Under the pieces are notes generated by a model. It saw only the letters and a list, made by a program, of their open reading frames with translations, was not told the origin of the DNA and did no database searches. From sequence record PZ229304.1: a stretch of DNA of 64,000 nucleotides; one strand, 5' to 3'. The DNA is from a phage. Below are positions 34,891 through 61,629 of this stretch, piece by piece (within the stretch, counting starts at the first letter, position 1; every line of letters begins with the position of its first letter). A program made the position numbers and the translations under genes.

Positions 34891-37710
34891 ATGTATCCTA
34901 TTCCTTTATTTATGTCAACAACATCAGCTTCAGTAGTAACAGCTACATCTATAACCACTTCCTCTATTGGTATTGCAATAGTTGGTAGTAAAAAGCAACT
35001 GACATACACAGTTTCACCGGAAGATGGTGCGTTATTTGATATAGATTTTTCATCTTCAGATAATACCAAAATGGTTATAGATAATAATGGTATGATGGAG
35101 TTTGTTGCTGAAGGTGGTTTTGATGCAATAATGACAGCTAAAAATAATTTAGGTGCTGTCTTAACTGATCAATCTGGTGGTTATGCTTCAGAATTAAGTG
35201 TGTACACTGAAAGTCTATCTGCTATGGATGTAGGCACTACTCAACAGTTGGTTGCTACAATCAGTCCAGAAGGTGCTAAAGACCTTCCAGATATGGTAAT
35301 TACGTACACCACAACAGATCCAGAAGTGGCTACTGTAAGCCCTACAGGATTAATAACTGCTCTTAAAGATGGTAATTGCCGTATAGGTTGTACTGCAACG
35401 TATCAAGGAACAGTTGTGGCCTCTGATAGTTCTTATTTAGGTGTTAATGCTATTCCTGTTATTTCTAATGTAACAGCCGTGGCAAACAGCTATGGAGACG
35501 TTCGTGTTGCTTGGGATGTAGCTGATCCGCTAGATGGTGATACTTATACTGTAGAAGTATTAGATTTAAGTAATAATAGTGTTCAGTGGACTACAACAAC
35601 CACGAATACTCATGCTTACTTTGATATCTCTGACTCTATTCCTCTTTATGGGTTTGCTCCAACATACCTTAAAATTAGCGTTAAGAGCACCAAAGCAGCA
35701 GCCGTTATCTTTAATAACTCAATAGCTACAGATGATTCATTCATTAAAGAAGTTATTGTCTTTGCTGGACAAGATAACGTAAATGCACACTTTACAGAAC
35801 TATCTGGTGCAAATAAAGCAGCAATGAGTAGCACAACAGCCCGTAATGCATATGCTACGCAACGTGGTTTAGCAAATGCTGAAGTTCTTCCGTTAAATAC
35901 AGCTTCTGGATCATCAGCAGCAGATAAATATGCTGACGATAAAGCTGGAACAGGAACACCAGACAACTACTGGTATGATCTGGATAACACAGCAGATGGG
36001 CCATGCTTAACTAACTTTATCACTAAAGTCACACCTTATGCAAGTAAGGTTAAAGCCATTATTTGGGGACAAGGTGAAAATGATGCTGTATCAGCATCTT
36101 CAACTGTTGCAGGTAGATACAGTAACACTACACGTTACCATGATGCTACGATAGCTATCTTTGATAAGATGCGTACAATAGTTCCTGCTTCTCAAGCAAA
36201 AATTGTTTGGCAGATCCTAGGACGTTCTTATTTATATGGTGTAGAAGTCAATGGTGTGGATTGGCAGAAATACAGAAATGTACAAAGAGCCATCTCTACG
36301 GCACGTGATGATGTTATCATTGGTTCTTGGGTAGATGGTGCTGAACGTTACAGTGGTTACGTTTATGAAGAAGGTATTGATGGTCGTATCCATTATATTT
36401 CTTCTGTATACCAGACAGCAGCTACAAAACTTGCTAAATCAGCAGCAGACGGTACAGACCTAACATCAACGTCACCTGTTTGGGTTGATATGGCTGTTCC
36501 AACTGGAGCAACAGCTACTTCCCAACCTAATCAAGATACAATTTTAGCATGGGATGCTCAAGGCTATAGTAAACACTACTTCCGTAATATTAACGTCTTA
36601 ACCGCATCTGTATTAACTGAACAAACGCTTAATACGAACAGTTATACGTTTACCTATGCAGATCAAGTAGCACAATATGGTTTTGCAGCAGGAACTACTA
36701 TATTTGATGTTGCATATTATGACGAAGCAAATGATGTGTTATCTCCTTTAGTACGTTTTAATGTTAACGTTACAGCAGGAACCGAAGAAGATAAACCTGT
36801 CGTGATGGACTATGATTTGACGCAAGAAACTCTCCCATCAGATGTTAAGGTTAATGGTGGGAACTCTTTTGCTCGTGCTTCTGGAGATAAACTTGTAGCC
36901 ACTAACACCTTGGTTGCTCCGTTGGAGTATGTTGGTACTACCCCTGTAGGTAGACGTGTAACAGCTAACACAGCTACACAAATTTTTGTCAACAACGCCT
37001 TAACAAGTGCAAGCCCGTGGGTAAAGACCAACTTAACTGTTGCAGCTTCATCTGATAACTCTCCGGCTGGAACTACTGCTAATGTATTCAAATTAACTCC
37101 GACTACAACCTCTGGTAGTCATATCTTAACTGCAACATATACTAACGCGTACAACATAAATGCCGGACGTAACTGGTCTGCCTCTGTTTTCTTGAAAGCG
37201 AACGGGATTACTAAGGCTAAACTAAGATTAAAAGCAGGAACTGAAGTTAATGAGGGTACTTTTGATTTAGCAGCAGGTACATTCACAGGAAGTGAAGCTA
37301 ATATTATATCTATGGGCAACGGTTGGTATCGTGCTATTCTGCATAAAACAGGGATAGCCAAACAGTCCTTCATAAGTTTTGAAATAATTGCCTTGGATGC
37401 AACTGGTGCAGAGATTTTCGCTGGAAATGGTACTAGTAACCTTGCAGTTTGGTTGCCACAGCTTGAAGGTGCTTCTACAGGAGAAACATCAAAAGCTGGA
37501 TCGCCTTATGTCTGCACATATCCTGGAAATTTAGGAGGAGTATCCTTCACTATACCAAGGAACGGACATACTGGTGTGGATGTTTACTATTCCAACGGAG
37601 ACGTTGTTCGTGACGTATTCTCTGGTACGGCATCTACTTGGACAATAAACTACTCCAGCTTGTACGATTGGGGATCAGTCTTTATTACAGGTTTGAAATA
37701 TTACGACTAA
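34891..37710 (+). CDS. tail fibre protein with Ig-like (BIG2-type) domain and possible SASA/SGNH-like esterase domain
   Basis: 939 aa; BIG2-like segment (VGTTQQLVATISPEG...TYTTTDPEVATVSPTGLITALKDGNCRIGCTA); VIVFAGQDNVNAHF resembles the GQSN motif of sialate-O-acetylesterase-like domains; last gene of the plus-strand block. Confidence 0.45.
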   Translation: MYPIPLFMSTTSASVVTATSITTSSIGIAIVGSKKQLTYTVSPEDGALFDIDFSSSDNTKMVIDNNGMMEFVAEGGFDAIMTAKNNLGAVLTDQSGGYASELSVYTESLSAMDVGTTQQLVATISPEGAKDLPDMVITYTTTDPEVATVSPTGLITALKDGNCRIGCTATYQGTVVASDSSYLGVNAIPVISNVTAVANSYGDVRVAWDVADPLDGDTYTVEVLDLSNNSVQWTTTTTNTHAYFDISDSIPLYGFAPTYLKISVKSTKAAAVIFNNSIATDDSFIKEVIVFAGQDNVNAHFTELSGANKAAMSSTTARNAYATQRGLANAEVLPLNTASGSSAADKYADDKAGTGTPDNYWYDLDNTADGPCLTNFITKVTPYASKVKAIIWGQGENDAVSASSTVAGRYSNTTRYHDATIAIFDKMRTIVPASQAKIVWQILGRSYLYGVEVNGVDWQKYRNVQRAISTARDDVIIGSWVDGAERYSGYVYEEGIDGRIHYISSVYQTAATKLAKSAADGTDLTSTSPVWVDMAVPTGATATSQPNQDTILAWDAQGYSKHYFRNINVLTASVLTEQTLNTNSYTFTYADQVAQYGFAAGTTIFDVAYYDEANDVLSPLVRFNVNVTAGTEEDKPVVMDYDLTQETLPSDVKVNGGNSFARASGDKLVATNTLVAPLEYVGTTPVGRRVTANTATQIFVNNALTSASPWVKTNLTVAASSDNSPAGTTANVFKLTPTTTSGSHILTATYTNAYNINAGRNWSASVFLKANGITKAKLRLKAGTEVNEGTFDLAAGTFTGSEANIISMGNGWYRAILHKTGIAKQSFISFEIIALDATGAEIFAGNGTSNLAVWLPQLEGASTGETSKAGSPYVCTYPGNLGGVSFTIPRNGHTGVDVYYSNGDVVRDVFSGTASTWTINYSSLYDWGSVFITGLKYYD

Positions 37711-37715
37711 TAAAA

Positions 37716-37739
37716 AAGGAGCCATTAGGCTCCTTTTCT
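37716..37739. terminator. bidirectional terminator between convergent late (+) and replication (-) blocks
   Basis: AAGGAGCC-ATTA-GGCTCCTT hairpin flanked by an A-run upstream and a T-run downstream. Confidence 0.6.
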
Positions 37740-37745
37740 TTTATC

Positions 37746-38177
37746 TTAATCAGTGAAAATTACGCTTACATCTTCTTTAGAAAAGAGTTTATGATCTTCA
37801 CCTTTTGTCTCAAGAGTTTCATACAGGTTAAGAAGTTCTGAAACATCTTTCTCTACCAGTTTCTTCAATGTTGCAATTTTCTGTTTGCGATTCTTAATAC
37901 GTTCAGCTACAACCTTACGTTGGTATCCAGCAGTACGATAACCTGAGAAAGTTACACCAGTGAGACTTGCAGTTACAGGATCGTAATGACGTTCAATCTG
38001 AAATTTATTAAAAGGTACAGCGTCATCACGAATAATCTTCCCGCCATTACTTACTTGACGAAGACCAGTAACTTGTTCTAGTCGTGCCATAGAAATCTTT
38101 GGAGACAGACCAGAGTCCAAGTTCATACCATTGTTAATCAGTGCTTTCAGGGTGATTTTGCTGTTCAGTGTACTCAT
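37746..38177 (-). CDS. hypothetical protein
   Basis: 143-aa ORF; an internal Met at 38126 would avoid overlap with the methyltransferase gene. Confidence 0.3.
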   Translation of the reverse strand: MSTLNSKITLKALINNGMNLDSGLSPKISMARLEQVTGLRQVSNGGKIIRDDAVPFNKFQIERHYDPVTASLTGVTFSGYRTAGYQRKVVAERIKNRKQKIATLKKLVEKDVSELLNLYETLETKGEDHKLFSKEDVSVIFTD

Positions 38178-46417: not shown

Positions 46418-46687
46418 CTAAAATGATTCGTTTGTCTCCATAATATATTGCATTTCCAAATCTTCCATATGTTTCTTAAATTGGTAAACAATTTCCGATG
46501 GGGAAATATCTATATCAAAAAGTTCTTTTGTACCAGAATAAAACCTAATACCATCAACAATAAGACCACCATAATAATCCCAATCACTTTCTCGTGAGAA
46601 AGGATTAGGTTCTTCATAATAGTAATCTACTTCAACAATAATAGGTTCTTTATTATCTTGTTTATACTCAAAATCAAAAGTGTTCAT
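46418..46687 (-). CDS. hypothetical protein
   Basis: 89-aa acidic ORF. Confidence 0.3.
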   Translation of the reverse strand: MNTFDFEYKQDNKEPIIVEVDYYYEEPNPFSRESDWDYYGGLIVDGIRFYSGTKELFDIDISPSEIVYQFKKHMEDLEMQYIMETNESF

Positions 46688-47631
46688 TATAAATCCTCGA
46701 TAAGCAGTCTGCGGGTTTCATTTAAATCATCAATATTGTAGTTATCTCTTACATACTTAGCAAGAGCTAATCCTTTCTCAATACAAACATCAGGAGATTC
46801 GATTAAGTATTCTACAATATCTTTCCACTCTTTAACTGAATCAGCAAAGAAGATTAGATCTTTAAATTCTTCAGTATAATAGTTCTCCCGTGGTGAACAA
46901 ACGAGTGGCAAACCTTTAGCACCAGCTTCAAGAATTTTTAAATTACTTTTGGCATTATTAAAATGATTATTTACTAATGGAGCTATGGAGATTTGATGAC
47001 CATCGTATGCTTCCATATAACACTCATAAGGACGAATACCTTCATAAACACAATCTGGTTGAATATCTTCTTTAATTTGCAACCATTGAGCACTACTTAA
47101 CTCTTCATGATCTCTACGAAATCCACATAAAGTTAAATCTTTACCAAAACTAGGAAGAATAGCTAAATCATGTTTATGTGTTTCACTTCCCGCCCAAACC
47201 AGTGGACTTTTAGAATAACGATCTTTCGTAAGAACAAACTGTCCTTCATCAAAAGGTAGTCCATTAGGCACAATATGTACATTATCATTGTATTGGCTTA
47301 ATTCAACCTTTAATGCTGGAGTTGTTGTAGTTACAAGATCGCTTCTTTCAAGGAACCATTTTAGATCATCTCGGATTTGATTTTCAAATAATCCTTCAAG
47401 CATATGTCCTTCAGGGATAATTAAAGAATCATCCAGATCCATTACCAATTTAAACCCAAGTTGTTTAAGAGCCAGGAAACCTGGCTTTCCACGGGTTGGT
47501 ACTCCATTGAACACAAAAATATTATGCTTAGGATTGATGGTCAGTTTGCGTTTATATGGCAAAATGATTCTATGAAAATCACATACACTATACTTTTCAT
47601 TTCCGCGTGTGTCAAGAATAATATTAGGCAT
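46687..47631 (-). CDS. glycosyltransferase (GT-B-like), paralogue A
   Basis: 314 aa; C-terminal NAKSNLKILEAGAKGLPLVCSP resembles the GT1/GT4 donor-binding motif; clear paralogue of the adjacent gene. Confidence 0.45.
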   Translation of the reverse strand: MPNIILDTRGNEKYSVCDFHRIILPYKRKLTINPKHNIFVFNGVPTRGKPGFLALKQLGFKLVMDLDDSLIIPEGHMLEGLFENQIRDDLKWFLERSDLVTTTTPALKVELSQYNDNVHIVPNGLPFDEGQFVLTKDRYSKSPLVWAGSETHKHDLAILPSFGKDLTLCGFRRDHEELSSAQWLQIKEDIQPDCVYEGIRPYECYMEAYDGHQISIAPLVNNHFNNAKSNLKILEAGAKGLPLVCSPRENYYTEEFKDLIFFADSVKEWKDIVEYLIESPDVCIEKGLALAKYVRDNYNIDDLNETRRLLIEDL

Positions 47632-47642
47632 ATCGCTCCTTA

Positions 47643-48617
47643 TTAAAGACTTTCAATAACTTGACGACGCAGTTCATTGGCATCTGCAAGATTATAATTA
47701 AGACGAACGTGTTCTGCAAGCATCATACCACGATCTTCTGTGTATCTAGGGTTTCTCATTAGCTTCACAACTTCATAATGCCAAGATGCTTTAGAGTCTG
47801 CATAGATAACAGCCTTTGCATCTACCGGATTGAAGTACGGCAGCACAGGAGAACAGATAATAGGAAGACCCTTTGCACCTGCTTCCAAAATCTTCAAATT
47901 GCTTTTACAGTTGTTGAAGTCATTATCTACCAGAGGAGCAATTGCAATACTGTGACCGTCATACACAGACATATACTCACCTAAATTTTTAATAGCTGGT
48001 TTATACTGTGCATTTGGAATTTTACGTTTTACTTTAACCCACTCCGCAGTAGTTAGATACTGACTATTATTTCCAACAGGTGCAGAAGGATACACTTCAT
48101 ACCCTGCAATTGTCAATAGTGTATCATCAAATGTATTAGCTACAAGAGATAAATCAGGTTCATGGCTTGCTCCTCCAGCCCAAATAATAGGCGTGTCAGA
48201 ATAACGGTCTTTTGTCAAAGTAAATTGACCTTCGTCGTAAGGTAGTGCGTTTCTAATAACGACAACATTACGATTTAAATGACGAATTTTGTAAGCTAGG
48301 TATTCTGTTGTTACTGTAACAACATCTGCTAACTTAACCATTTCTACAATAGTCTTTGAATGATTAGTAAATACGCCAGCCATATAATGTTCAGGATTAA
48401 GTGAATAAAAGTCATCTAAATCAACAATAATCTTAACACCTTGTGCCTTCAGGCGTTTAACTTCGTCTGCTCCATGAGAATACACTCTATTAAAAACTAA
48501 AACGTCTTTCTTAGGTTTAAACGTATTTCCAGCAAATGGCATTACAATACGATGGTAATCACAACCACTGCCTAACTTATTATCACACTTAAGTACAGGA
48601 GTATTAGGATTTACCAT
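47643..48617 (-). CDS. glycosyltransferase (GT-B-like), paralogue B
   Basis: C-terminal NCKSNLKILEAGAKGLPIICSP. ORF track starts at 48656; the Met at 48617 has a GAGGAGG RBS and minimal overlap with the upstream gene. Confidence 0.45.
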   Translation of the reverse strand: MVNPNTPVLKCDNKLGSGCDYHRIVMPFAGNTFKPKKDVLVFNRVYSHGADEVKRLKAQGVKIIVDLDDFYSLNPEHYMAGVFTNHSKTIVEMVKLADVVTVTTEYLAYKIRHLNRNVVVIRNALPYDEGQFTLTKDRYSDTPIIWAGGASHEPDLSLVANTFDDTLLTIAGYEVYPSAPVGNNSQYLTTAEWVKVKRKIPNAQYKPAIKNLGEYMSVYDGHSIAIAPLVDNDFNNCKSNLKILEAGAKGLPIICSPVLPYFNPVDAKAVIYADSKASWHYEVVKLMRNPRYTEDRGMMLAEHVRLNYNLADANELRRQVIESL

Positions 48618-49290
48618 ATTTTTGAGCCTCCTCATAAGAGATAAAAGTTTTACCATTGCGAAGATCCTCCAGTGATTGTTTATATTGTTCCCAGTTTACA
48701 CCAATCCCCTGTTCTTTCTCTTCTTTTGACAGATTCGCAAAAGGTAAAGGATTGTCTCCAAACACATCGTCAGGATGGATAAACGCCATAATTCGAATAG
48801 GACATGGTACGCCTGGAATACCTCGGTTCAAACCTGCCAGCGGAACGCGCTGAATCCACTCTGCATCTTCATATCCATAACCGTGGGTGTATGAGCGGAA
48901 ATAGCCAGCTTTCTCAATAACTGCACGGGAATACATACCAAACTGGCACATCCCTAGTTCCCAAATAACCACTTCCCCTTCAATACCTTTTACTTTATCT
49001 TTAAAGTATTCAGGCATACCAAAGAAATCCCAACCATTTTCCTTCGCCTGTTTTACAAAATATGTTTCCCAACCTTGAACAACAGGATAACAATCATCAT
49101 CAAAAATAAACCAGTAATCATACCCTTCATCATAAAACTTTTTCATCAGTTCATTACGAGCATATGCAACACCTTTTCGTTCCCGATCATACTGTACAAC
49201 AAAAGTAGCATTAGGATCAGTCACAAGATAGTCTTTAAGAGGACGCTTACCTACAGTAATAACACCAACACCAATTTTTGTATTTTCCAA
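48604..49290 (-). CDS. putative glycosyltransferase (GT-A-like, DxD)
   Basis: 228 aa; WFIFDDDCYP acidic DxD-type motif; same operon as the GT-B pair. Confidence 0.35.
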   Translation of the reverse strand: MENTKIGVGVITVGKRPLKDYLVTDPNATFVVQYDRERKGVAYARNELMKKFYDEGYDYWFIFDDDCYPVVQGWETYFVKQAKENGWDFFGMPEYFKDKVKGIEGEVVIWELGMCQFGMYSRAVIEKAGYFRSYTHGYGYEDAEWIQRVPLAGLNRGIPGVPCPIRIMAFIHPDDVFGDNPLPFANLSKEEKEQGIGVNWEQYKQSLEDLRNGKTFISYEEAQKYGKS

Positions 49291-49299
49291 AATAACTCC

Positions 49300-49863
49300 T
49301 TAAATAATTTTATTCATGTCTTGACAATGTAAAAGGTGTGAAACAGCTTTTCTAGGATCATCGTTACCTAAACGGTAGGTGTGAAATAAATATAACCCAC
49401 GTAGTAAACCTAGCCTTTTATTGTTAGCGTGTAATGCTTTAGAGAAAATTATATCAAACTGTATTGATCTTTCCTCAAAAGGGATTTCATTCCACAGACT
49501 CTTACGAAAGAGAAGAAAGAATCCTGCTAAGATAGCATCTGTAGGTACTTCCTCTATTGAGTTTCCCCATTCTAGATGTGCTCTTTTTGCAATCTCAATG
49601 TGGTGTAATATATTTGGATCTTCACTTCTTTCATTATTAAATAATTGATATGTTGATCCCAATCTATTACAAGATGCACCAAGAACATCAAAATCAGGAT
49701 TTGAACGAACTATTGATTCCAGCCAAGCAGGTTGTTCTGGAAGAAGAAACATTGTATCAATGTCTCTTAGGCAAATCCAACTATCTTCTGGTAAGACACT
49801 TATTGTGTCATTGATACCTTTTCCAATATCTCCAGAAAGATAGGGAGTTATGTGAAATATCAT
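49300..49863 (-). CDS. hypothetical protein, possibly nucleotide-sugar transferase-like
   Basis: 187 aa; CLRDIDTMF DxD-like motif; first gene of the glycosyltransferase block. Confidence 0.25.
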   Translation of the reverse strand: MIFHITPYLSGDIGKGINDTISVLPEDSWICLRDIDTMFLLPEQPAWLESIVRSNPDFDVLGASCNRLGSTYQLFNNERSEDPNILHHIEIAKRAHLEWGNSIEEVPTDAILAGFFLLFRKSLWNEIPFEERSIQFDIIFSKALHANNKRLGLLRGLYLFHTYRLGNDDPRKAVSHLLHCQDMNKII

Positions 49864-51880: not shown

Positions 51881-52477
51881 TTACTCGAACCAATCGTCGC
51901 CAGCGCCAAACGCTTTAACTACATCGTAAATGTCAAGCCCAGCTTTACCTACACCATATGCTTTCAGTTTCCATTCGCTATCTTCTCGCACCAGGGAGGC
52001 AACGTGGCAAATGGTGTTACCTGCAAGTTCTGGAGCCAAGAAGTCAAAGTCCAGCAGTTCAACATTACGTTCATCATCGAAGATTTTAAGGAAACCTTCG
52101 GTAGCGTGACCAAGGCGTTTCTTACCCGTTTCGTCATCAATAGTAATTACGAATGCAATTTCCTGTGCTTCAGCAGAGATATTATCCAGTGTAACATCAA
52201 TCTGCTCCATCTGTCCTACACCATCACGAACATCTTCACCTGCAAAAGTAGAACGTTCAGGATCAAATTTCTGCGCGTAGCACACCAGGTGACGAGGAGA
52301 CAACAGTTCCGGCAGACCAGATGCATTGTGTCGGCAAATCAGAGCACTAACATCCAGATCCAGTTTTTCGTTAGATTTCCAAGAGAATTCCAGACGAATG
52401 CGTTTCAGTGCTGGTGCGATCTTTTTCAGAGAAACTTTTTCGCTAGAACCTTTTTTCAGGGAAATTTTCTGAGTCAT
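51881..52477 (-). CDS. terD: TerD-family protein (tellurite-resistance / stress-response family)
   Basis: 198 aa; N-terminal MTQKISLKKGSSEKVSLKK is the typical TerD start; acidic Ca-binding-like segments (FAGEDVRDG, ITIDDETG). Confidence 0.6.
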   Translation of the reverse strand: MTQKISLKKGSSEKVSLKKIAPALKRIRLEFSWKSNEKLDLDVSALICRHNASGLPELLSPRHLVCYAQKFDPERSTFAGEDVRDGVGQMEQIDVTLDNISAEAQEIAFVITIDDETGKKRLGHATEGFLKIFDDERNVELLDFDFLAPELAGNTICHVASLVREDSEWKLKAYGVGKAGLDIYDVVKAFGAGDDWFE

Positions 52478-52549: not shown

Positions 52550-53344
52550 TTACGCTTTTGCTCCGAATTTTTTAACCCACTCACCAAACTCTTCGGATAG
52601 CAGTTTATCGTAAAGTTCTTCGTCAGACAAGGACAAATCTGCAATACCGATAAAATCAACATTATCGTATTCTTTTGCCAAGTCTTTCAAGAATTTAAAG
52701 TTTGCATTACCTACACCAACCATAAACCAGTAAACAGGAGTGTTGCGGTGTTTGTTCAGCAAACTACGTACTGCTGAAGTATCCATGTTCTCCCCGTCAG
52801 TTTGGAAGAAAATCATTGCAGGAGTACGATCAACTTGTGCATCAGTATCTACAACCTGCTCTACAACAGTACGTGTTACTTCTACAAGTTCTTTTTTACC
52901 AGTTAGTTTAGCAAGGAAACCTTTAGCCGGAACTTCTTCATACTCAACGACTTCGCGTGTAATATTTTTCATAGGTACACTACCGAAGTATGTATCATAG
53001 ATCTCTTGCATTACTGGAGCATAGGCTGTACCACCGTTGATGCAAACATTAGACATGCAAGAGCCGACATAATCATCATACACATCAGCCGTTGCAGGAG
53101 GCAGTTCAAAAGAAGAACTATTGAAAGCCCACATGTCAATCTGTGCATTATCATCAAACTTCATACCAAACGGCAGCAGTTTACCTACAAAATCACTAAC
53201 AGTGCCATCACGATATAGCTCACACATACTACCCGAAATATCTAAGGCGCTACCGACACGAAGAACAACATCGTTAATCTTTTTCTTACGCAGAGATACA
53301 GTAAGAGTTTCTTGACGTTTTTTAAGACTGATTTTATTGGACAT
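52550..53344 (-). CDS. vWA-domain protein with TerD-like N-terminal tag (TerY-like)
   Basis: 264 aa; N-terminal SNKISLKK; MIDAS-like LDISGSM and downstream TDGEN motifs. Confidence 0.55.
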   Translation of the reverse strand: MSNKISLKKRQETLTVSLRKKKINDVVLRVGSALDISGSMCELYRDGTVSDFVGKLLPFGMKFDDNAQIDMWAFNSSSFELPPATADVYDDYVGSCMSNVCINGGTAYAPVMQEIYDTYFGSVPMKNITREVVEYEEVPAKGFLAKLTGKKELVEVTRTVVEQVVDTDAQVDRTPAMIFFQTDGENMDTSAVRSLLNKHRNTPVYWFMVGVGNANFKFLKDLAKEYDNVDFIGIADLSLSDEELYDKLLSEEFGEWVKKFGAKA

Positions 53345-53345
53345 A

Positions 53346-53615
53346 TTATTTCTCCTTTCTGACTATAATGTTAGTAACTTCTAAATCCACTTCTACCACT
53401 TCTGTATCATATAAAATACAGTTAAGTTGACCTCTTTGTGAACCGTTCAGACACATTGCTTGGTTTGTATTAACCTTAATAAACACTAAGTTTATGAACG
53501 TATCTAAACCAGAATCTTGATAGGCAACATAATATACGAATGTATCACCTGCGTCAAGTTCTCCAAAACATTTAGGTTCATCTGATTTGTCGTCTTTGAT
53601 GTTAAATTTAAGCAC
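53346..53615 (-). CDS. hypothetical protein within Ter-like module
   Basis: 89-aa ORF in operon context. Confidence 0.3.
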   Translation of the reverse strand: MLKFNIKDDKSDEPKCFGELDAGDTFVYYVAYQDSGLDTFINLVFIKVNTNQAMCLNGSQRGQLNCILYDTEVVEVDLEVTNIIVRKEK

Positions 53616-54171
53616 TGTCTTCTCCTTTACCTGCTCTCAAGCCTAAATAGAAAGCCTCTCTGGTGATCTTTTGCAACTCGTTTAAAGCGATAGTTACAAC
53701 TAAATCATCTTCAATTTCTAGCTTTGAGTCTTCTTCTGTCTCAATGCAAGTATTATGCACTTTGTGGTAAGGATTGTCAACACGTTTAAATTTATTATTT
53801 TCAGTGCTGAAGAAGCAATCTGGATCTTCTTCCCCATCACCCAAACCCTGGTTAGGATCTTCTTCAGATCTTTCTGTTGGGATCTCACCTGTAAAGTGCT
53901 CTTCTAATACCAGAGCAATCCCATCTCCAAGATCGGAAGAGAACATCAAATTACAAACTTCTTCCCAAGGCATAGACCACTTAAATCTTTTACGATTACC
54001 ATGTTTATCTTCTTCGTTAGAGAAAACACTACCATAGCTATCATAATTCCCATACATCTCTTCGACAACCTTACCACCTTTCAAAAGAAATAGGTAGCAA
54101 GGAGAGCCATCGAAAGAGGTAGAAAGAGCAGCATTACCAGACTCTTTGCACAAGAAACTAAAACACCCCAT
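53608..54171 (-). CDS. hypothetical protein within Ter-like module
   Basis: 187-aa acidic ORF. Confidence 0.3.
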   Translation of the reverse strand: MGCFSFLCKESGNAALSTSFDGSPCYLFLLKGGKVVEEMYGNYDSYGSVFSNEEDKHGNRKRFKWSMPWEEVCNLMFSSDLGDGIALVLEEHFTGEIPTERSEEDPNQGLGDGEEDPDCFFSTENNKFKRVDNPYHKVHNTCIETEEDSKLEIEDDLVVTIALNELQKITREAFYLGLRAGKGEDSA

Positions 54172-54371: not shown

Positions 54372-54604
54372 TACACATTCTCCTCTTTTACCAATTCCAT
54401 CGTTGAACTATCAAAACCATCTTTAGAAGAATAGGTATAGACAGAACGTAGTTCGCGCAGGACAGTGAATACATTAGGATCATCTAACCAAGCATCCTGG
54501 AGGAGAACATAACGATCTTCATTGTCGTACTGGACAGCAATCATAGAACCAGACAGTTTGTAAATTTTAATATTCATAATATATTTCTCCTTAAAGTAGA
54601 CCAC
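54371..54604 (-). CDS. hypothetical small protein
   Basis: 77-aa ORF with stop/start overlap to neighbours. Confidence 0.3.
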   Translation of the reverse strand: MVYFKEKYIMNIKIYKLSGSMIAVQYDNEDRYVLLQDAWLDDPNVFTVLRELRSVYTYSSKDGFDSSTMELVKEENV

Positions 54605-55694
54605 GTTTAACAGTTTGAATCATGCCATCTTCAAGAGATTGCACTTCTTGAATGTAATCAATACGAGCAGCACGGGCTTCAGTGTTGATTCGGTTAGTTT
54701 CTTCCAACATTTTAACTAAGTTTTCTTGATCACGACGTAATGTTTCAATATCCAACACTTGACGATTAGCAAGTTGTGTAGCTTCAATTTGGTTTTGTGC
54801 AGCAAGATCACTACCCATTGCAATAGCAGCATTAAATTCATTCAGTACATTGTTCTGTGTATCGGCTGCTTTCTTCTGGCGTAGACTTTCAATATACATA
54901 GAAAAGTTTGCAGAGTAAGCAGGAATAACATTATTCACAATATTACGGGCTGATCGCATCAAACTTGCAGATACTTTCTGCATACTTTGTACACGTGGCC
55001 CCATCTGAACACACAGTAAGCGTAGGGCTTTCAGGTCTGCAATACGAATTTCAAGCAGATCCATAGTATCACGAGTACGTTGACGCTCTTCTACCTCATT
55101 TTCAGGCAGTGTATTAAGGCGAACTTCTTCTTTTTCATAAGTAGCTGTTAGAAGCTCTATATCTCTGTTTAAGCTAAGAGCATATTTGGCAATAGCCTCT
55201 TCTAAACGTTGCAGATATCGTAAAGAATCTTCTTCTTTTTTCAAGTCTGTTTGGAGTGTCTTTACCAAACCTTCAATACGATTATTGATGGTGTCAAATT
55301 CTCCAAACAAATCTTCTTTCATACCTAATACTTTCTTAACTAACTTACCTAAACCTTTAGATTGTTTAATAGAATTAGGATCAAGTTGCTTTGCTTGCTT
55401 AATAAGTGCAGTTAAACGTTCACTCATTTCATCTCCCTGAGATGAACGCTGGTGTTTAAGCACTTCAGCATTAAGGTTACGAAGAGTAAGTCCTGCATCA
55501 GCACCAACCTGTTCAATCTCTTCACGAGACATTGGAGGCAGCATTTGTACAGGTCGTGCAACAGCAGGGGCATATACAGGACTTGCATCCATAGCAGTTG
55601 GAGCAAACAAAGACTTACTTTTTTCTGTTGTTGCCGTGAATACACTCATTTCAGACGGTTTGCTTTTTACGGCACTGATAAAAGGACTGGACAT
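54591..55694 (-). CDS. TelA-like (toxic anion resistance / KlaA-like) protein, putative
   Basis: 367 aa, predominantly helical coiled coil; size and operon context with TerD/TerC; no discrete motif verified. Confidence 0.4.
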   Translation of the reverse strand: MSSPFISAVKSKPSEMSVFTATTEKSKSLFAPTAMDASPVYAPAVARPVQMLPPMSREEIEQVGADAGLTLRNLNAEVLKHQRSSQGDEMSERLTALIKQAKQLDPNSIKQSKGLGKLVKKVLGMKEDLFGEFDTINNRIEGLVKTLQTDLKKEEDSLRYLQRLEEAIAKYALSLNRDIELLTATYEKEEVRLNTLPENEVEERQRTRDTMDLLEIRIADLKALRLLCVQMGPRVQSMQKVSASLMRSARNIVNNVIPAYSANFSMYIESLRQKKAADTQNNVLNEFNAAIAMGSDLAAQNQIEATQLANRQVLDIETLRRDQENLVKMLEETNRINTEARAARIDYIQEVQSLEDGMIQTVKRGLL

Positions 55695-55762: not shown

Positions 55763-56614
55763 TTAAACAAACATATCTAAATAATTTGTAGTAATAAACG
55801 CCCCATCTGCTTCCAGATTAACATAACCAGTAGCATTAGTGGTTAAGAAATCCAGATCGAAGGACTCTTTAACACCCCGTACCTCAACACGAGAGATATC
55901 GAATACAGGTAGTGTAACAGCCTCTTCGTGCAATACCGTACCTTTGTAGGTTGCCTTAATGATAAACTTGATATTACCCGTTCCAGCATCATACAAAACA
56001 CTTTCAAACCCTTTGAGAGTATATTTATCACCAGAAGTGAAGTGCAAAGTTGCTTTGTTTACAGTACGTTTTTTACGAGGAGTTCCTTTCACACGTTTAT
56101 GATCACTACGTTTTTTGTATTTAGGAATGAATACAAACGATACACTCTCAAGAAAGGTATCAACATCAAGGATTTTAATATCCTCTGTTGCAGCAAATTT
56201 TGAAGTCGTTGCATCAAAATGCTTTTCCCTGCGATCATACATAAAGATATCAAACCGATCTTCTAAATCAAACAAATTATGTATTTTAATTTCAGAATGC
56301 TTGCGCATTGCAGCAACCTTGAACTCTTCAAAACGTGGGTGTTCTACAAGTTCTTCAAGTTTTACACCAAAGACAGTATATTGCTTCGGAGTTTTTTCTG
56401 GTGTTGGCATTACAGAAGCATAATCCCCGATTGCGCTCTTAAAGCAAAATTGTTCTTGACCTGTATTTTTACCAACGAATTTACAGTATTCGTCATCGTG
56501 CATACTTTCCTGGGTAGTACCAACAAACTCAAAACCATCTTTATTCTTCTCAAGAATTTCTTGATTAAAGATCCAACCTTCCAGGCGATACACTTTACCA
56601 ACTTCTAGTTTCAT
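55763..56614 (-). CDS. hypothetical protein within Ter-like module
   Basis: 283-aa ORF. Confidence 0.3.
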   Translation of the reverse strand: MKLEVGKVYRLEGWIFNQEILEKNKDGFEFVGTTQESMHDDEYCKFVGKNTGQEQFCFKSAIGDYASVMPTPEKTPKQYTVFGVKLEELVEHPRFEEFKVAAMRKHSEIKIHNLFDLEDRFDIFMYDRREKHFDATTSKFAATEDIKILDVDTFLESVSFVFIPKYKKRSDHKRVKGTPRKKRTVNKATLHFTSGDKYTLKGFESVLYDAGTGNIKFIIKATYKGTVLHEEAVTLPVFDISRVEVRGVKESFDLDFLTTNATGYVNLEADGAFITTNYLDMFV

Positions 56615-56649: not shown

Positions 56650-57255
56650 TTAACGACGACGTGAGCTACTAAAACTACGTTTCGACGAAGAATAACTTTT
56701 CGAAGACTTACTATAAGAGCTAATAGGACTTGAGTAAGACTTACGAGCAGAGTAATCACTATTCACTTTTGTTGTTGATGGGCGTGAATACGTTTGTACA
56801 CTTTGCTGCTTAATTGTGTTTTGTTTAGTTGTTGTATATGTATTCCCTTGTTTATCATAAAAACTATGCTTTTGTGTTGTATATGCTTTACTATTAGTTG
56901 CAGGAGCAGCATTGTTATTAATAATGGTTGTATTGCTACCACCATCTCTATAACCACCACCGCCACTATTACCACTCAACATATGACCAAGAAGCATACC
57001 TGTAGCAAAGTCACCTACACCAGAAGAACCACTGCCGCCTCCTTGAACAACAACTGTTGAAGGTTGTGCAGGTGCTGCTTGAACAACTTGAGGTGCAGGT
57101 TGATTTACATATTGTTCATCTACCATCTGATTTGGTGTTTGTTGGTAACGTTGATTTTGTACATTTTCAGAATCATCACAACCTACCAGCAATGCACTAC
57201 CTAAAACAACTGCAACAATAAAAGATTTAATGTTTTTCATTTGTAACCCTCTCAT
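56650..57255 (-). CDS. lipoprotein with glycine-zipper region
   Basis: Likely start at the MKNIKSF Met; lipobox LLVGC; Gly-rich GGGSGSSGVGDFATGMLLGHMLSGNSGGGG; Ser/Asn/Gln-rich C-terminus. Confidence 0.5.
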   Translation of the reverse strand: MRGLQMKNIKSFIVAVVLGSALLVGCDDSENVQNQRYQQTPNQMVDEQYVNQPAPQVVQAAPAQPSTVVVQGGGSGSSGVGDFATGMLLGHMLSGNSGGGGYRDGGSNTTIINNNAAPATNSKAYTTQKHSFYDKQGNTYTTTKQNTIKQQSVQTYSRPSTTKVNSDYSARKSYSSPISSYSKSSKSYSSSKRSFSSSRRR

Positions 57256-57472: not shown

Positions 57473-58450
57473 TTAAGCAACAGCCTGGTCTTCTTTTTCA
57501 GGGAAGATTAAACTTGCAAGAACACCCAGCCCAAGAGTACCTAACACAATATACATACTGATCGTCGGGTCAATGTGTGCTGGCAGGAAACTCATTTTTG
57601 CGTGCAGAGTTTCTGCAAACGGATGATACATCAGTTTTACACCCACAAATACCAGGACTACGATAACTGCTTTCTCCAGATGAACCAAATATTTCAGTGC
57701 AACACTAAGAACAAAGAACAGAGCACGTAAACCTAAGATTGCACAGAGCATCGAAGAGAACACCAGCAGAGGTTCTTGTGTCACTGCAATTACTGCTGGA
57801 ACAGAGTCTACTGCAAAGATTACGTCAACCATTTCCATTACAAACACACAAACCAGAGCCGGAGTTGCTACACGAACACCATTTTTGATTGTGAAGAACT
57901 TCTCACCATCCATCTGATCAGATACAGGGAACAGCTTACGAACAATGCGAGTAGCCCAGTGTTTAGAGTAATCAACTTCTGCATCATTATCTCCAGCGAA
58001 TACCATTTTAGCCGCACAGAAAAGGATGACAGCACCGAAGAAGATATTAACATACCAGCCCAAACTCAACAAGTAAGTACCTACTGCTACAAACACACCT
58101 CGGAAGACAATCGCACCTGCAATACCCCAAAGTAGAATCTTGTGTTGCAAGTGTGTGCTTTTAATACCAAAACTTGCGAATACTGCCACAAATACTACTA
58201 AGTTATCTACAGAAAGAGATTTCTCCAACACATACCCACTCAAAAACAAGCTCGCAAAATCAGCACCGTGTTGGAAGTATACAAAACCATAGTAGGCTAA
58301 TGATACCCCAATCCAGAAAATTGACCAACCAATTGCAGATTTAAATGAAATTTCTTTGTTTTCTCTGTGTCCAAAGAAATCAATACAAATCGACAACACT
58401 AAAATACCCACTAAAACAACCACATCAATAATTGGGAAACCCAGTTGCAT
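57473..58450 (-). CDS. terC: TerC-family integral membrane protein
   Basis: 325 aa, multi-pass hydrophobic; duplicated signature SLSVDNLVVFVAVF and FAVDSVPAVIAV typical of TerC. Confidence 0.75.
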   Translation of the reverse strand: MQLGFPIIDVVVLVGILVLSICIDFFGHRENKEISFKSAIGWSIFWIGVSLAYYGFVYFQHGADFASLFLSGYVLEKSLSVDNLVVFVAVFASFGIKSTHLQHKILLWGIAGAIVFRGVFVAVGTYLLSLGWYVNIFFGAVILFCAAKMVFAGDNDAEVDYSKHWATRIVRKLFPVSDQMDGEKFFTIKNGVRVATPALVCVFVMEMVDVIFAVDSVPAVIAVTQEPLLVFSSMLCAILGLRALFFVLSVALKYLVHLEKAVIVVLVFVGVKLMYHPFAETLHAKMSFLPAHIDPTISMYIVLGTLGLGVLASLIFPEKEDQAVA

Positions 58451-58527
58451 TCTTTCCTCCTCTTTAATGCGGAGGACAATCCTCCGCTCTATGTCTTATA
58501 CTATAAACTGTTTTTAAAGAAAGTCAA

Positions 58528-58790: not shown

Positions 58791-58997
58791 TTATTTGTTA
58801 GATTGAAAGATACCACGAAGTACCGCAAGAATGAACGTCACACAGACTACACTCCAAAACGTTACAGGAACATGATGCCAGTCTAAGCCGATAATGTCAA
58901 TCATATAGTTGTATGCTAAAAGCAGTAACCAACTAGGGATTAACACAATCAAGAACACAACAATAAAACAACCTAATACTGCTAAAACACCTGCCAT
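58791..58997 (-). CDS. small membrane protein (hypothetical)
   Basis: 68 aa, two hydrophobic helices. Confidence 0.3.
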   Translation of the reverse strand: MAGVLAVLGCFIVVFLIVLIPSWLLLLAYNYMIDIIGLDWHHVPVTFWSVVCVTFILAVLRGIFQSNK

Positions 58998-59006
58998 ACT
59001 TTCTCC

Positions 59007-59722
59007 TTATTTCAGTTTGTAAACAATTACATTTAAACCTTTGTTCACTAGAGTTTCTTCGATCATAAGTTTTACAATATTCCAAGAACCTCCAGCCAAA
59101 CCACAACCAAGCATTGGTAAACCTACAATTTTACCGCCTGAAGATACAACATCGTCTCCCATACTATCTAACGCATTGTAGATAGCTTCATAATCCAGGT
59201 CACGCTTACCTTCCTCACGACGACTATAACCATATTGTCCATATAAATTATAAATTGTCAAATTGTTTTCTGTATACTTAGTAAACGTACCTAATTTTTT
59301 ATAATCACCACGTTTAGTGGCACAATCTGCTTTAAACGCACCAGGCCACTTGCTTTTAATTTTTGGTGCAATACCACTACCCATAGTGCAAAAACAGTTA
59401 CAGCAGTGTGCTATAGCGTCTATATCGCCTCTCTCGGCTGCTGCTAAAAGATCACCGTATACCTCAATGATACCTGCTGGATAACTTGTTACAATTTCAT
59501 CTTCCCAATACATTTTCTCTACACCACCGATCAGTGCAAAGTTTTGTGTAATGCGATCATCAATATAGTTAAGACCTGAAACATACACAGCATATTCATC
59601 CTGTGCTGTAATGCCTTGTACACGAATTCTTAAGACACCATCTTTATCTGTTGCTACGCGCCCAAAATCTTTTTCTGTAATATTGGTGATAGGATCTCCG
59701 AAAGTCATTACTTTATTAGACA
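59007..59722 (-). CDS. macro-domain-like protein (ADP-ribose binding / processing), putative
   Basis: Probable start is the MSNKVMTF Met. DAIAHCCNCFCTMGSGIAPKI and IVGLPMLGCGLAGGSW resemble the two Gly-rich macro-domain motifs. Confidence 0.4.
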
Positions 59723-60573
59723 TAATAATCCCCTTTAACATTAGATTTGTTGATAATGTTGCTTTCAAAAAATTGACGCAGGAAATCAAAGTTCTCTTTG
59801 TATTTTTCAATATTATTGTAACCTTCTGCAAGGCAACCAAAGAACAGTTGTTCTACATAATACAAAGGAAGTTGTGAAAGTGCAATTTTAAAATCAACTT
59901 CGCTTTGACTCATTAGATACTTAATAGGACGAACCAAACATTTAGCATCAGTTTCTTGCTTAATCATTTTAATAAAAGCTGCCAGGTTATTGATATAGTT
60001 GAAGTTAAGTGCAGCTTCGGTGTTGGCTTCTGTACCTTCATACTTTGCAAAGTACAGGAAAAACGTATCGTTTTCAACACCTTCTTTGTCTAAAATTTCA
60101 ATAAGTTTTTCTTCGTGTGTTCCTGTAATATTAACATCATCAATGAAAATCAGAGTTTTATTACCCCAGAAATCACGATTGATAGAGAAAGTGTCACCAT
60201 CGATCAAAGCCTTACGATCTTCTTTGCTAAGAAATCCATAATCATTGATATAACTCACTTTACGATGAACGATATCCCACTCCACTGCTTTACCTCCTTT
60301 GATAGAGATTAGGTAGTTGAGGTGATCTACAAAATGCTCAGATAACACTGTAGCTGCATTTTTCACATAATTATATGGAGATGGAATAACAACAAAACTT
60401 TCATTTACTAGTCGTTCTTCATATTTAGAAAAGAAACTTTCAGCCAGAATGCGTCCCATTCTTTTTGCTGCCTGGTTACTGCCAAACTTTAGTTTGGAAT
60501 AATCTGCAATGTTAAATTTTGCTTCCTTCAGGTTAGTAAAAGTATTAGCAAAATGTTGAATTTGATTACGCAT
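59716..60573 (-). CDS. phosphoribosyltransferase (type I PRTase fold)
   Basis: 285 aa; LIFIDDVNITGTH matches the PRPP-binding motif (hydrophobic-DD-x-x-TG-x-T). Confidence 0.55.
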   Translation of the reverse strand: MRNQIQHFANTFTNLKEAKFNIADYSKLKFGSNQAAKRMGRILAESFFSKYEERLVNESFVVIPSPYNYVKNAATVLSEHFVDHLNYLISIKGGKAVEWDIVHRKVSYINDYGFLSKEDRKALIDGDTFSINRDFWGNKTLIFIDDVNITGTHEEKLIEILDKEGVENDTFFLYFAKYEGTEANTEAALNFNYINNLAAFIKMIKQETDAKCLVRPIKYLMSQSEVDFKIALSQLPLYYVEQLFFGCLAEGYNNIEKYKENFDFLRQFFESNIINKSNVKGDYYV

Positions 60574-61222
60574 TAATAAGTTCCTCTTTTTTAAGTTTAG
60601 CCAACAAGTCTTCTGGATTAATAATATGACAGAACTTCATCCCTATGTCAACAGCTTTTCCATCATAAATCAAACTATCTCCAACGTGTAAAATCTCCTC
60701 TGGTGCGAGATCAAACGTTACCATTTCATCAAAAGAGAGTTTAAAAAACCTAGGATCTGGTTTACACAAGCAAAACTCGTCAGAAAAATGCATAAAGTCG
60801 AATGGTAATTTTGTTAAACCAGAATATACAGCTAAGAAACTACCTGGTACAAAATTAGTATTACTCTTAATACTCAAAGAGTAGGTTGAACTTAGCTCTT
60901 CCAACTTCTTGCAAAGTTCAGGATTCAATGTTGGAGGATGTTTTATAAACATTGCTAAACAGTCTCTTTTTAACCCATCCACTTTATCAAGATCAATATT
61001 CAAATGAGTAGAAAGTGTTTCCCAAGCATTCCTAGACGTTCCACAAATTCCTTTTTCTGCTTTTAAATCCAGGAGAGTTTTTACCTCTTTATATACGGTA
61101 GCTGCTTCTGCTTCAGAACAAGAGGCATACTCGGCAATAACCTTGTTGCGTTCTTCTGCATACAAAGGATTAGCAGTAATAAGAGTATTCCATACATCAA
61201 AAGAAATATGCTTAACAGTCAT
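60566..61222 (-). CDS. HAD-superfamily hydrolase (phosphatase-like)
   Basis: Motif I-like ISFDVWNTLI near N-terminus and motif IV-like VGDSLIYD; likely start at the MTVKHISF Met with GGAGG RBS. Confidence 0.5.
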   Translation of the reverse strand: MTVKHISFDVWNTLITANPLYAEERNKVIAEYASCSEAEAATVYKEVKTLLDLKAEKGICGTSRNAWETLSTHLNIDLDKVDGLKRDCLAMFIKHPPTLNPELCKKLEELSSTYSLSIKSNTNFVPGSFLAVYSGLTKLPFDFMHFSDEFCLCKPDPRFFKLSFDEMVTFDLAPEEILHVGDSLIYDGKAVDIGMKFCHIINPEDLLAKLKKEELINA

Positions 61223-61595: not shown

Positions 61596-61603
61596 ATAAA
61601 TAA

Positions 61604-61622
61604 AGGAGGCTTTCGCCTCCTT
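61604..61622. terminator. bidirectional hairpin terminator
   Basis: AAGGAGGC-TTTC-GCCTCCTT flanked by an A-run and a T-run. Confidence 0.5.
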
Positions 61623-61629
61623 TTATCAC

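Follow-up and report, generated by a model that had tools for sequence, protein, structure and literature searches.

A Ter-linked HAD-phosphoribosyltransferase gene pair and a likely AdfM-type macrodomain, probably two functional units, in a phi92-like Escherichia coli phage

The DNA analyzed here is a stretch of 64,000 nucleotides (nt) from phage sequence record PZ229304.1, referred to below as the window, and the genes under study are three open reading frames (ORFs) at 59007-61222 that encode a HAD hydrolase, a phosphoribosyltransferase (PRTase) and a macrodomain protein. The 5 kb around this locus aligns over its entire length with phiWec187, Paula, phi92 and approximately 50 other phi92-like E. 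coli myoviruses at 98.0-98.7% identity, and the window thus belongs to a phi92-like E. coli phage (Justusliebigvirus, Stephanstirmvirinae). An original prediction, made from the sequence alone, had described three adjacent co-directional genes forming one ADP-ribose- or nicotinamide adenine dinucleotide (NAD)-linked pathway, possibly countering NAD-depleting or ADP-ribosylating immunity or supplying the metabolite arm of a Ter-like module. The gene arrangement was confirmed at these exact coordinates, with all three ORFs on the minus strand. The HAD-IA hydrolase gene (60566-61222, 218 aa, ATG start; ortholog of phi92 gp187) is the first gene of what we call the HAD-PRTase cassette and is followed by the gene for a ComF-like type I PRTase of Pfam family PRTase_3, PF15610 (59716-60573, 285 aa; gp186 ortholog) and the gene for a macrodomain protein of the TARG1/DarG class (59007-59723, 238 aa, ATG start; gp185 ortholog). 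A TTG-initiated ORF extending to 59840 was rejected as the macrodomain gene, and the ATG start at 59723 was taken instead.

Each of the three ORFs is preceded by a Shine-Dalgarno sequence and begins with ATG; the ribosome-binding site of the HAD gene is GGAGG. The HAD and PRTase genes overlap by 8 nt (ATGCGTAA), as do the PRTase and macrodomain genes (ATGTCTAA), and the three are translationally coupled. They lie within a transcription unit of the order gp189-gp188-HAD-PRTase-macrodomain-gp184-gp183, with two small genes on each side of the trio. A terminator-like hairpin (61602-61623, minus strand) marks the upstream edge of this unit, and the downstream edge is probably a GC-rich palindromic hairpin (58469-58487) that separates the gp183-like gene from the TerC gene; a terminator is annotated in Paula at both places. 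In phi92, gp187 is annotated as a hydrolase, gp186 as a "putative orotate phosphoribosyltransferase" and gp185 as "phosphatase; potential Tk.4-like". Paula and the BASEL phages carry the same annotated trio, labelled in the BASEL phages as HAD-like, phosphoribosyltransferase and macrodomain proteins. Identical HAD, PRTase and macrodomain genes are already present in dozens of GenBank records, and every component comes from a described family.

The PRTase matches Pfam PRTase_3 at 143.5 bits, against a cut-off of 28.7 (E-value: 1e-41; profile positions 14-264 of 264). This family, labelled ComF-like by Pfam, is the one associated with Ter systems; it was the only family returned by the Pfam search, with no match to the nicotinamide PRTase type. 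The sequence LIFIDDVNITGTH, cited originally for a type I PRTase, corresponds to residues 141-153 and holds the loop for phosphoribosyl pyrophosphate (PRPP), D145-D146-V-N-I-T150-G151-T-H153, with both the acidic pair and the T-G present. The protein has a ComF-like type I PRTase fold, for which the closest solved structure is ComF, and carries a C-terminal helical addition at residues of about 185-280. Members of the family from very different phages share 45-50% identity, and 42 columns, including the DD...TG.H of the PRPP loop, are invariant in 55 PRTase sequences. An NCBIfam search gave no family, salvage equivalogs included, at an E-value ≤ 0.01, and a sequence search of the PDB gave nothing better than 0.086. 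The GenBank name "orotate phosphoribosyltransferase" is a misnomer for a Ter-family PRTase. In the literature, we found no dedicated study of PF15610/PRTase_3, nor one of phi92 with these domains.

The HAD hydrolase was also correctly predicted: its Pfam Hydrolase match scores 27.9 bits against a cut-off of 26.4, and a profile of the cassette HAD family identifies the archaeal protein 2om6 as its best solved relative (E-value: 1e-20). NCBIfam places the protein with the REG-2-like (top match) and HAD-IA families and gives weak similarity to the YjjG pyrimidine nucleotidase; in PHROGs it belongs to phrog_14393. Motifs were read across 26-30 cassette HADs. Motif I is FDVWNTL (residues 8-14; 61174-61200, minus strand), in which the nucleophile Asp9 is kept and the Asp+2 position is occupied by Trp11. 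Motif II is S120-N121, motif III is K154 and motif IV, with the metal site, is G181-D182...D187. Across 26 cassette HADs, D9, S120, K154, D182 and D187 do not vary, as befits the HAD-IA subfamily. The D-x-W-x-T form of motif I, common to the cassette HADs and 2om6, may mark an HAD-IA subgroup with atypical chemistry.

The distribution of these genes was surveyed in 49 loci (L001-L049) with a relative of the PRTase, drawn from annotated phages, plasmids, metagenome contigs, IMG/VR and bacterial genomes. The PRTases were clustered at 70% identity into 23 lineages, and all ORFs of the 49 loci were scanned with iteratively built hidden Markov models (HMMs). A HAD gene lies immediately upstream of the PRTase gene, usually overlapping it, in 22 of the 23 lineages. 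The sole PRTase_3 lineage with no detectable upstream HAD (L031 and L032:9941-10789) is a divergent PRTase (33% identity) on a GC-rich viral contig. At least one Ter gene (TerD, TerC, TelA or vWA-TerF) is found within 10 kb of the PRTase in 12 of the 23 lineages. A macrodomain gene adjoins the PRTase in only two lineages, both from Stephanstirmvirinae, and none occurs next to it in the bacteria or on the plasmids. Non-adjacent macrodomains were detected by the HMM scan 7-8 kb from the PRTase in L009 and L016, while a Pfam scan of the cassette-flanking genes in the examined Rhizobium, Caulobacter and metagenomic phages gave Nudix and weak DSPc matches and no macrodomain. In the phage database, PRTase matches come from 157 records and TerD matches from 144, the two taxon lists being nearly identical, compared to 2,907 for the macrodomain, which is thus approximately 18 times more widespread across phages than the PRTase. 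The 22/23 pairing with HAD, as against the 2/23 adjacency of the macrodomain and its independent spread, indicates that the conserved unit is HAD-PRTase.

The scan of the bacterial genome collection used one stringent peptide pattern and returned 15 loci, mostly from Rhizobiaceae; enterobacterial ter islands fall outside this sample, so that the bacterial statistics are thin. In Rhizobiaceae the HAD-PRTase pair stands alone, and in the Bacteroidota loci L011, L048 and L049 it lies near TerD paralogs, with TerC present as well in L011 and L049. Among the phages, the pair sits within a Ter cluster in the independent loci L006, L020, L022, L024 and L025 (a contiguous one in L006, L020 and L025) and directly beside TerD in L016 and L022. 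The cassette is usually found in neighborhoods of nucleotide metabolism: NrdD/G in the window, and PurZ-like, TK, Nudix and RNA ligase genes elsewhere. Genes for a PurZ-like adenylosuccinate synthetase lie a few kb from cassettes that lack nearby Ter genes (L004:10623-11873, L007:16-612 and L008:423-1640); they hint at 2-aminoadenine genomes, although this may be coincidence. Two unannotated records of about 146 kb labelled "Campylobacter phage" (MG065656.1 and MG065645.1) encode PRTase and TerD proteins 100% identical to those of E. coli phi92-like phages; their host was probably mislabelled, unless these records are contaminants. Two further records with the same label (MG065644.1 and MG065659.1) have only distant macrodomain matches (about 32% identity).

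In the window, four Ter-family genes lie on the same strand as the trio, 1.3-8.7 kb downstream of it. These encode a TerC-family integral membrane protein (57473-58450; Pfam TerC E-value: 1e-38), with its own promoter-like site at 58527-58500, a TelA-like protein (54591-55694; Pfam TelA E-value: 5e-34), a vWA-TerF-like protein (52550-53344; Pfam PF10138 E-value: 1e-38) and a TerD-domain protein (51881-52477; Pfam TerD E-value: 5e-28), all on the minus strand. The proteins scanned included no TerB. Ter systems are described as comprising PRTases and HAD phosphoesterases that make a nucleoside or nucleotide derivative, and as being relatively complete in some phages (PMC7824862; PMC8115787). Versions of this module carried by phages were pointed out in 2021, in Acinetobacter phage ME3 "and certain other related smaller tailed phages" (PMC7824862). 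A nucleoside-like metabolite of Ter systems was predicted in 2012 by Anantharaman, Iyer and Aravind, as recounted in later papers by that group and by others (PMC7824862; PMC5512222; PMC8115787). The suggestion that the locus provides the metabolite arm of a Ter-like module thus fits the PRTase and HAD, given the PF15610 assignment and the Ter genes of 12 lineages.

The macrodomain protein matches Pfam Macro at 31.2 bits (cut-off: 22), and its macrodomain spans residues of about 88-238. The macro fold that had been proposed from two Gly-rich motifs was upheld: both loops (TMGSGIA and LGCGLAGGSW) are present, and TMGSGIA and LGCGLAGG align to the ADP-ribose-binding loops of solved macrodomains. 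The best relatives in the PDB are SCO6735 (5e3b) and BT1257 (2fg1), at an E-value of 6e-15, and human TARG1/OARD1 (4e-10). The DarG models of NCBIfam and PADLOC match residues 88-236 with E-values of about 1e-13 (the match of T4 Tk.4 itself is weaker, at 2.5e-7), and the match, at 48.6 bits, falls far short of the 250-bit cut-off of the DarG equivalog. In the PADLOC scan, the macrodomain alone was matched, to DarG, and there was no match for the Ter, PRTase or HAD proteins. In a BLASTP comparison, the protein shows 30% identity to T4 Tk.4 (E-value: 4e-18), and the two have a common family, phrog_335; tblastn matches in T-even phages fall on tk.4, between vs and tk. The phages on record with this macrodomain include T-even, Felixounavirus, PAK_P1-like, Vibrio, Acinetobacter and Bacillus phages. 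Its nearest relatives outside Stephanstirmvirinae are in the PAK_P1-like phages (45% identity), a group absent from the taxa listed for PRTase matches.

According to a 2025 preprint, T4 requires one gene on DarTG2 hosts, tk.4, there named adfM, whose knockout sensitizes the phage to DarTG2 (bioRxiv 10.1101/2025.11.20.689424). AdfM of a chimallivirus was shown in 2026 to remove the ADP-ribose that DarT2 attaches to DNA; N22 and K80 are the active-site residues of DarG2 in Thermus aquaticus numbering (PMC13309987). We recovered the T. aquaticus DarG sequence by way of a true DarT-DarG pair of Meiothermus; a plasmid search for named DarG gave mostly generic macrodomain proteins. In the alignment, the equivalent of Asn22 is invariant (N109 in the macrodomain protein). 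The protein does not qualify as a DarG2, since Lys80 is replaced by Gln163 and the protein ends with the macrodomain, leaving no C-terminal DarT-binding domain; the annotations of phi92 and Paula show no DarT/DUF4433 gene in the corresponding region. Gln is also found at the K80 column in the Stephanstirmvirinae relatives and in T4 Tk.4 itself. With its Tk.4 homology, the same active-site pattern and its position as an orphan macrodomain in a virulent phage, the protein conforms to the Tk.4-type AdfM. The BASEL phages Bas60-62 are phi92-like (PMC8594841), and the NADAR protein of phi92-like phages (AdfN of Bas60) has been shown to counter DarTG1 (PMC11825919). As these phages encode an anti-DarTG1 NADAR, a complementary anti-DarTG2 macrodomain is plausible and would mirror the situation in T4. 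Judged from its sequence, the macrodomain is likely an anti-DarTG2 factor of the AdfM type. A role against ADP-ribosylating immunity, as originally suggested for the trio, is accordingly retained as a prediction for the macrodomain on its own and not for the three genes together.

The first part of the macrodomain protein has a separate history. The N-terminal extension (residues 1 to about 85, encoded by 59469-59723, minus strand) was found only in Justusliebigvirus. Residues 11-106 of the protein match, in BLASTP, the N-terminal half of a separate 188-aa protein (L014:9505-10071; E-value: 9e-6) that has a counterpart at L015:4024-4590. The C-terminal half of this protein matches the MazG-like pyrophosphatase family phrog_1247 (E-value: 1.9e-21) in PHROGs alone, and Pfam and PDB searches of the 188-aa L014 protein gave no support for MazG. 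In the third Stephanstirmvirinae clade, to which L014 and L015 belong, the 188-aa gene and a 127-aa gene separate the PRTase and macrodomain genes, and in Phapecoctavirus a 157-aa gene consisting of the macrodomain only begins 13 nt after the PRTase gene. From these comparisons, the extension is best explained by an in-frame deletion in which the MazG-like half was lost and the remainder was fused to the macrodomain. The same deletion-fusion would have created the 8-nt overlap of the PRTase and macrodomain genes. The translational coupling of these two genes is recent and specific to this lineage, and it is because of this coupling that the trio looks like one pathway.

Based on these results, we consider it probable (approximately 60%) that the locus combines two functional units, transcribed together in this phage lineage: a Ter-linked HAD-PRTase_3 cassette and a stand-alone macrodomain of the Tk.4/AdfM type, which appears to follow the PRTase through shared ancestry within Stephanstirmvirinae. 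In the most economical scheme for the cassette, the ComF-like PRTase would couple PRPP with some base or amine, yielding a ribosyl-5'-phosphate, and the HAD hydrolase would strip the 5'-phosphate from this ribotide to release a nucleoside-like riboside. The riboside would then act together with the phage TerD, vWA-TerF, TelA and TerC proteins; it may change the state of the membrane or of ions in the course of infection, or keep out competing phages. We infer these steps and the link to TerD, TerC and TelA function from gene families and context, and the predicted route from PRPP through ribotide to riboside matches the nucleoside-like metabolite predicted for Ter systems. The original prediction was therefore partly supported: it named both of the right ideas, a Ter metabolite arm and anti-ADP-ribosylation, and joined them into one pathway, for which the comparative data give no support.

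The product of HAD-PRTase_3 pairs, predicted in 2012, was still described as a prediction in 2021 (PMC7824862; PMC8115787). The phage cassette is a minimal and highly conserved two-gene form of this system and would be a convenient one in which to find the product, and the identity of that product would help to explain the presence of Ter proteins in virulent phages. The macrodomain, as a likely anti-DarTG2 factor, would complement the NADAR anti-DarTG1 factor of the phi92-like phages.

Four observations weigh against this interpretation. First, the column of the catalytic Lys80 of DarG2 (Lys84 of TARG1) holds Gln163 in the macrodomain and that of TARG1 Asp125 holds Ala210, so that the Lys84/Asp125 catalytic pair of TARG1 is absent. 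Second, motif I of the HAD (D-V-W-N-T) departs from DxDxT in the Asp+2 general acid; the Trp at this position is nearly invariant across the cassette HADs of all loci (D-x-W-x-T, with one Tyr exception), and simple phosphatase chemistry is consequently not assured. Third, about half of the PRTase lineages have no Ter gene within 10 kb, so the cassette may work without Ter proteins. The two-gene cassette alone may make a conserved, undescribed phage metabolite, which would fit the T4-like, jumbo, Rhizobium and Caulobacter phages that lack nearby Ter genes. Fourth, the coupling of the genes, the hairpin-bounded unit and the PRTase-macrodomain neighborhood in three Stephanstirmvirinae clades make a lineage-specific functional link possible.

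The last of these observations bears on the proposal of a single pathway, in which the macrodomain would bind or hydrolyze a ribosyl or ADP-ribosyl compound made or dismantled by the PRTase and HAD. The 8-nt overlaps connect all three genes within the single hairpin-bounded unit, the PRTase and macrodomain genes are neighbors in Justusliebigvirus, Phapecoctavirus and the third clade, and the relatives of the macrodomain class include an ADP-ribose-1''-phosphate phosphatase and an O-acetyl-ADP-ribose deacetylase. The comparative data are difficult to reconcile with such a pathway. The adjacency is confined to two of the 23 PRTase lineages, in one subfamily and in no bacterial or plasmid locus, and about 2,750 or more phage records have a macrodomain and no PRTase; the PAK_P1-like phages with the 45%-identity relatives are not among the taxa listed for PRTase matches. 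In the third clade two unrelated genes stand between the PRTase and macrodomain genes, and the overlap seen here follows from the deletion-fusion. Given the 2/23 adjacency, the 2,907 records as against 157 and this origin of the coupling, a single ADP-ribose- or NAD-linked three-gene pathway, as first proposed, is unlikely.

An action of the ComF-like PRTase on nucleic acid or the DNA-precursor pool, for example in the handling or modification of single-stranded DNA (ssDNA), in place of the synthesis of a free signaling riboside, is similarly doubtful. The nearest solved structure, ComF, belongs to DNA-uptake machinery, an interaction with ssDNA has been suggested for the PRTase domains of mobile elements (PMC5512222), and the usual setting of the cassette among nucleotide-metabolism genes would suit such a role. 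These points are countered by the strict pairing of the PRTase with an HAD-IA enzyme of the small-molecule type, by its intact PRPP loop and by the embedding of the cassette in Ter clusters. Moreover, phi92-like phages have putative dTDP-glycosylation machinery, yet in the BASEL study they were very sensitive to restriction-modification systems (PMC8594841), which makes a protective DNA modification unlikely.

There is a small chance that an AdfM-type macrodomain was recruited in Stephanstirmvirinae to the Ter HAD-PRTase operon and now acts on the riboside or ribotide of the cassette. Such a macrodomain could, for example, take a phosphate or acyl group off a ribose-derived signal. If this were true, the three enzymes of the locus would together form a phage pathway that controls a small molecule linked to Ter.

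Ordinary nucleotide salvage, in which a purine or pyrimidine PRTase and a 5'-nucleotidase would adjust host pools, is improbable. This reading accords with the "putative orotate phosphoribosyltransferase" annotation of several GenBank records, with HGXPRT, OPRT and UPRT as structural neighbors of the PRTase and with the weak YjjG similarity of the HAD. The identity of the PRTase to solved salvage enzymes is, however, at most 17%, with a TM score of about 0.3-0.4, and its family is set apart by 42 positions invariant within it and by the additional helical region at the C-terminus. As it matches no curated NCBIfam salvage family and has no meaningful sequence match in the PDB, we rejected the plain salvage assignment, which would also leave the Ter linkage unexplained. 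Least of all do we favor NAD+ rebuilding against host NADases, with the PRTase making nicotinamide mononucleotide (NMN) or a related pyridine nucleotide, the macrodomain recycling ADP-ribose and the HAD tuning the pool: phage NAD-synthesis systems with phosphoribosyltransferases are known (PMC7824862), but the PRTase is a type I ComF-like PF15610 protein and not of the nicotinamide (Nampt) type, no adenylyltransferase gene was found beside it in the examined loci, a 5'-phosphatase would break down NMN and so oppose NAD synthesis, and the cassette is linked with Ter genes and not NAD genes, all of which makes the NAD-linked pathway and the proposed countering of NAD depletion very improbable.

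Several other genes in the region deserve mention. A gene for a small two-helix membrane protein (58791-58997, minus strand; 68 aa) lies 9 nt 3' of the macrodomain gene and belongs to phrog_16065 (E-value: 9e-42). Orthologs are found at L014:10530-10748, L015:5076-5279 and L017:11325-11546, and the phrog_16065 gene adjoins the macrodomain gene in all three Stephanstirmvirinae clades; this neighborhood is at least as conserved as that of the PRTase and macrodomain genes. In one GenBank record, a "Zot-like toxin" feature that overlaps the macrodomain-gene match may be the phrog_16065 gene. Three unannotated genes are interleaved with the Ter genes on the minus strand (53608-54171, 55763-56614 and 56650-57255; gp175-, gp179- and gp180-like). 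They keep the same positions in Phapecoctavirus and may serve as partners of the Ter proteins specific to this lineage. In the gp180-like protein, the N-terminus resembles a signal peptide and the tail is rich in Ser. Further downstream, at least three of four consecutive minus-strand genes (46687-49863) match glycosyltransferases weakly (GT-B-type, and a weak match to the TET-associated glycosyltransferase family); the fourth has no Pfam match, and its phi92 ortholog carries a glycosyltransferase annotation. Throughout the examined part of the window (about 41.5-64 kb), the genes are on the minus strand, and the GC skew, which flips from positive to negative at about 36000-38000, agrees with this orientation of the coding strand.

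The cassette resembles the biosynthetic module of Ter systems in its PF15610 family membership, its ComF-like type I fold, the adjoining HAD and the neighboring TerD, vWA-TerF, TelA and TerC genes. It differs from the ter locus of Klebsiella, a 14-gene putative biosynthetic set (PMC8115787), in that the phi92-like phage has the two-gene core only, and it departs from what would be expected of a Ter module in the Trp that replaces the Asp+2 general acid of the HAD. The HAD itself is of the same subgroup as Pyrococcus horikoshii 2om6, human HDHD3 (3k1z) and other REG-2-like HAD-IA proteins, and its motif I is identical to that of 2om6 (FDVWNTL). Unlike the cassette HAD, 2om6 and HDHD3 have no PRTase partner and no Ter context.

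A close parallel to the macrodomain protein is T4 Tk.4/AdfM, also a stand-alone phage macrodomain. The motifs AHxCNCFxTMGSG, NLY(G/T)Q and P-x-x-G-x-G are common to both, and both keep the Asn equivalent to N22 and have Gln at the position of DarG2 K80; unlike Tk.4, the macrodomain protein has an 85-residue N-terminal segment of separate origin. DarG2 of T. aquaticus and Mycobacterium tuberculosis (5m31, 5m3i) and the AdfM protein gp104 of PhiKZ are of the same macrodomain class and likewise conserve the N22 equivalent. In contrast to DarG2, the phage protein has Gln163 for Lys80 and lacks the C-terminal domain that binds DarT, and no gene for a DarT partner is annotated nearby. SCO6735 and BT1257 share its GQ(H/Y)G and GCGLAGG motifs but, as with TARG1, they are cellular proteins with no link to phage counter-defense, unlike the phage macrodomain protein.

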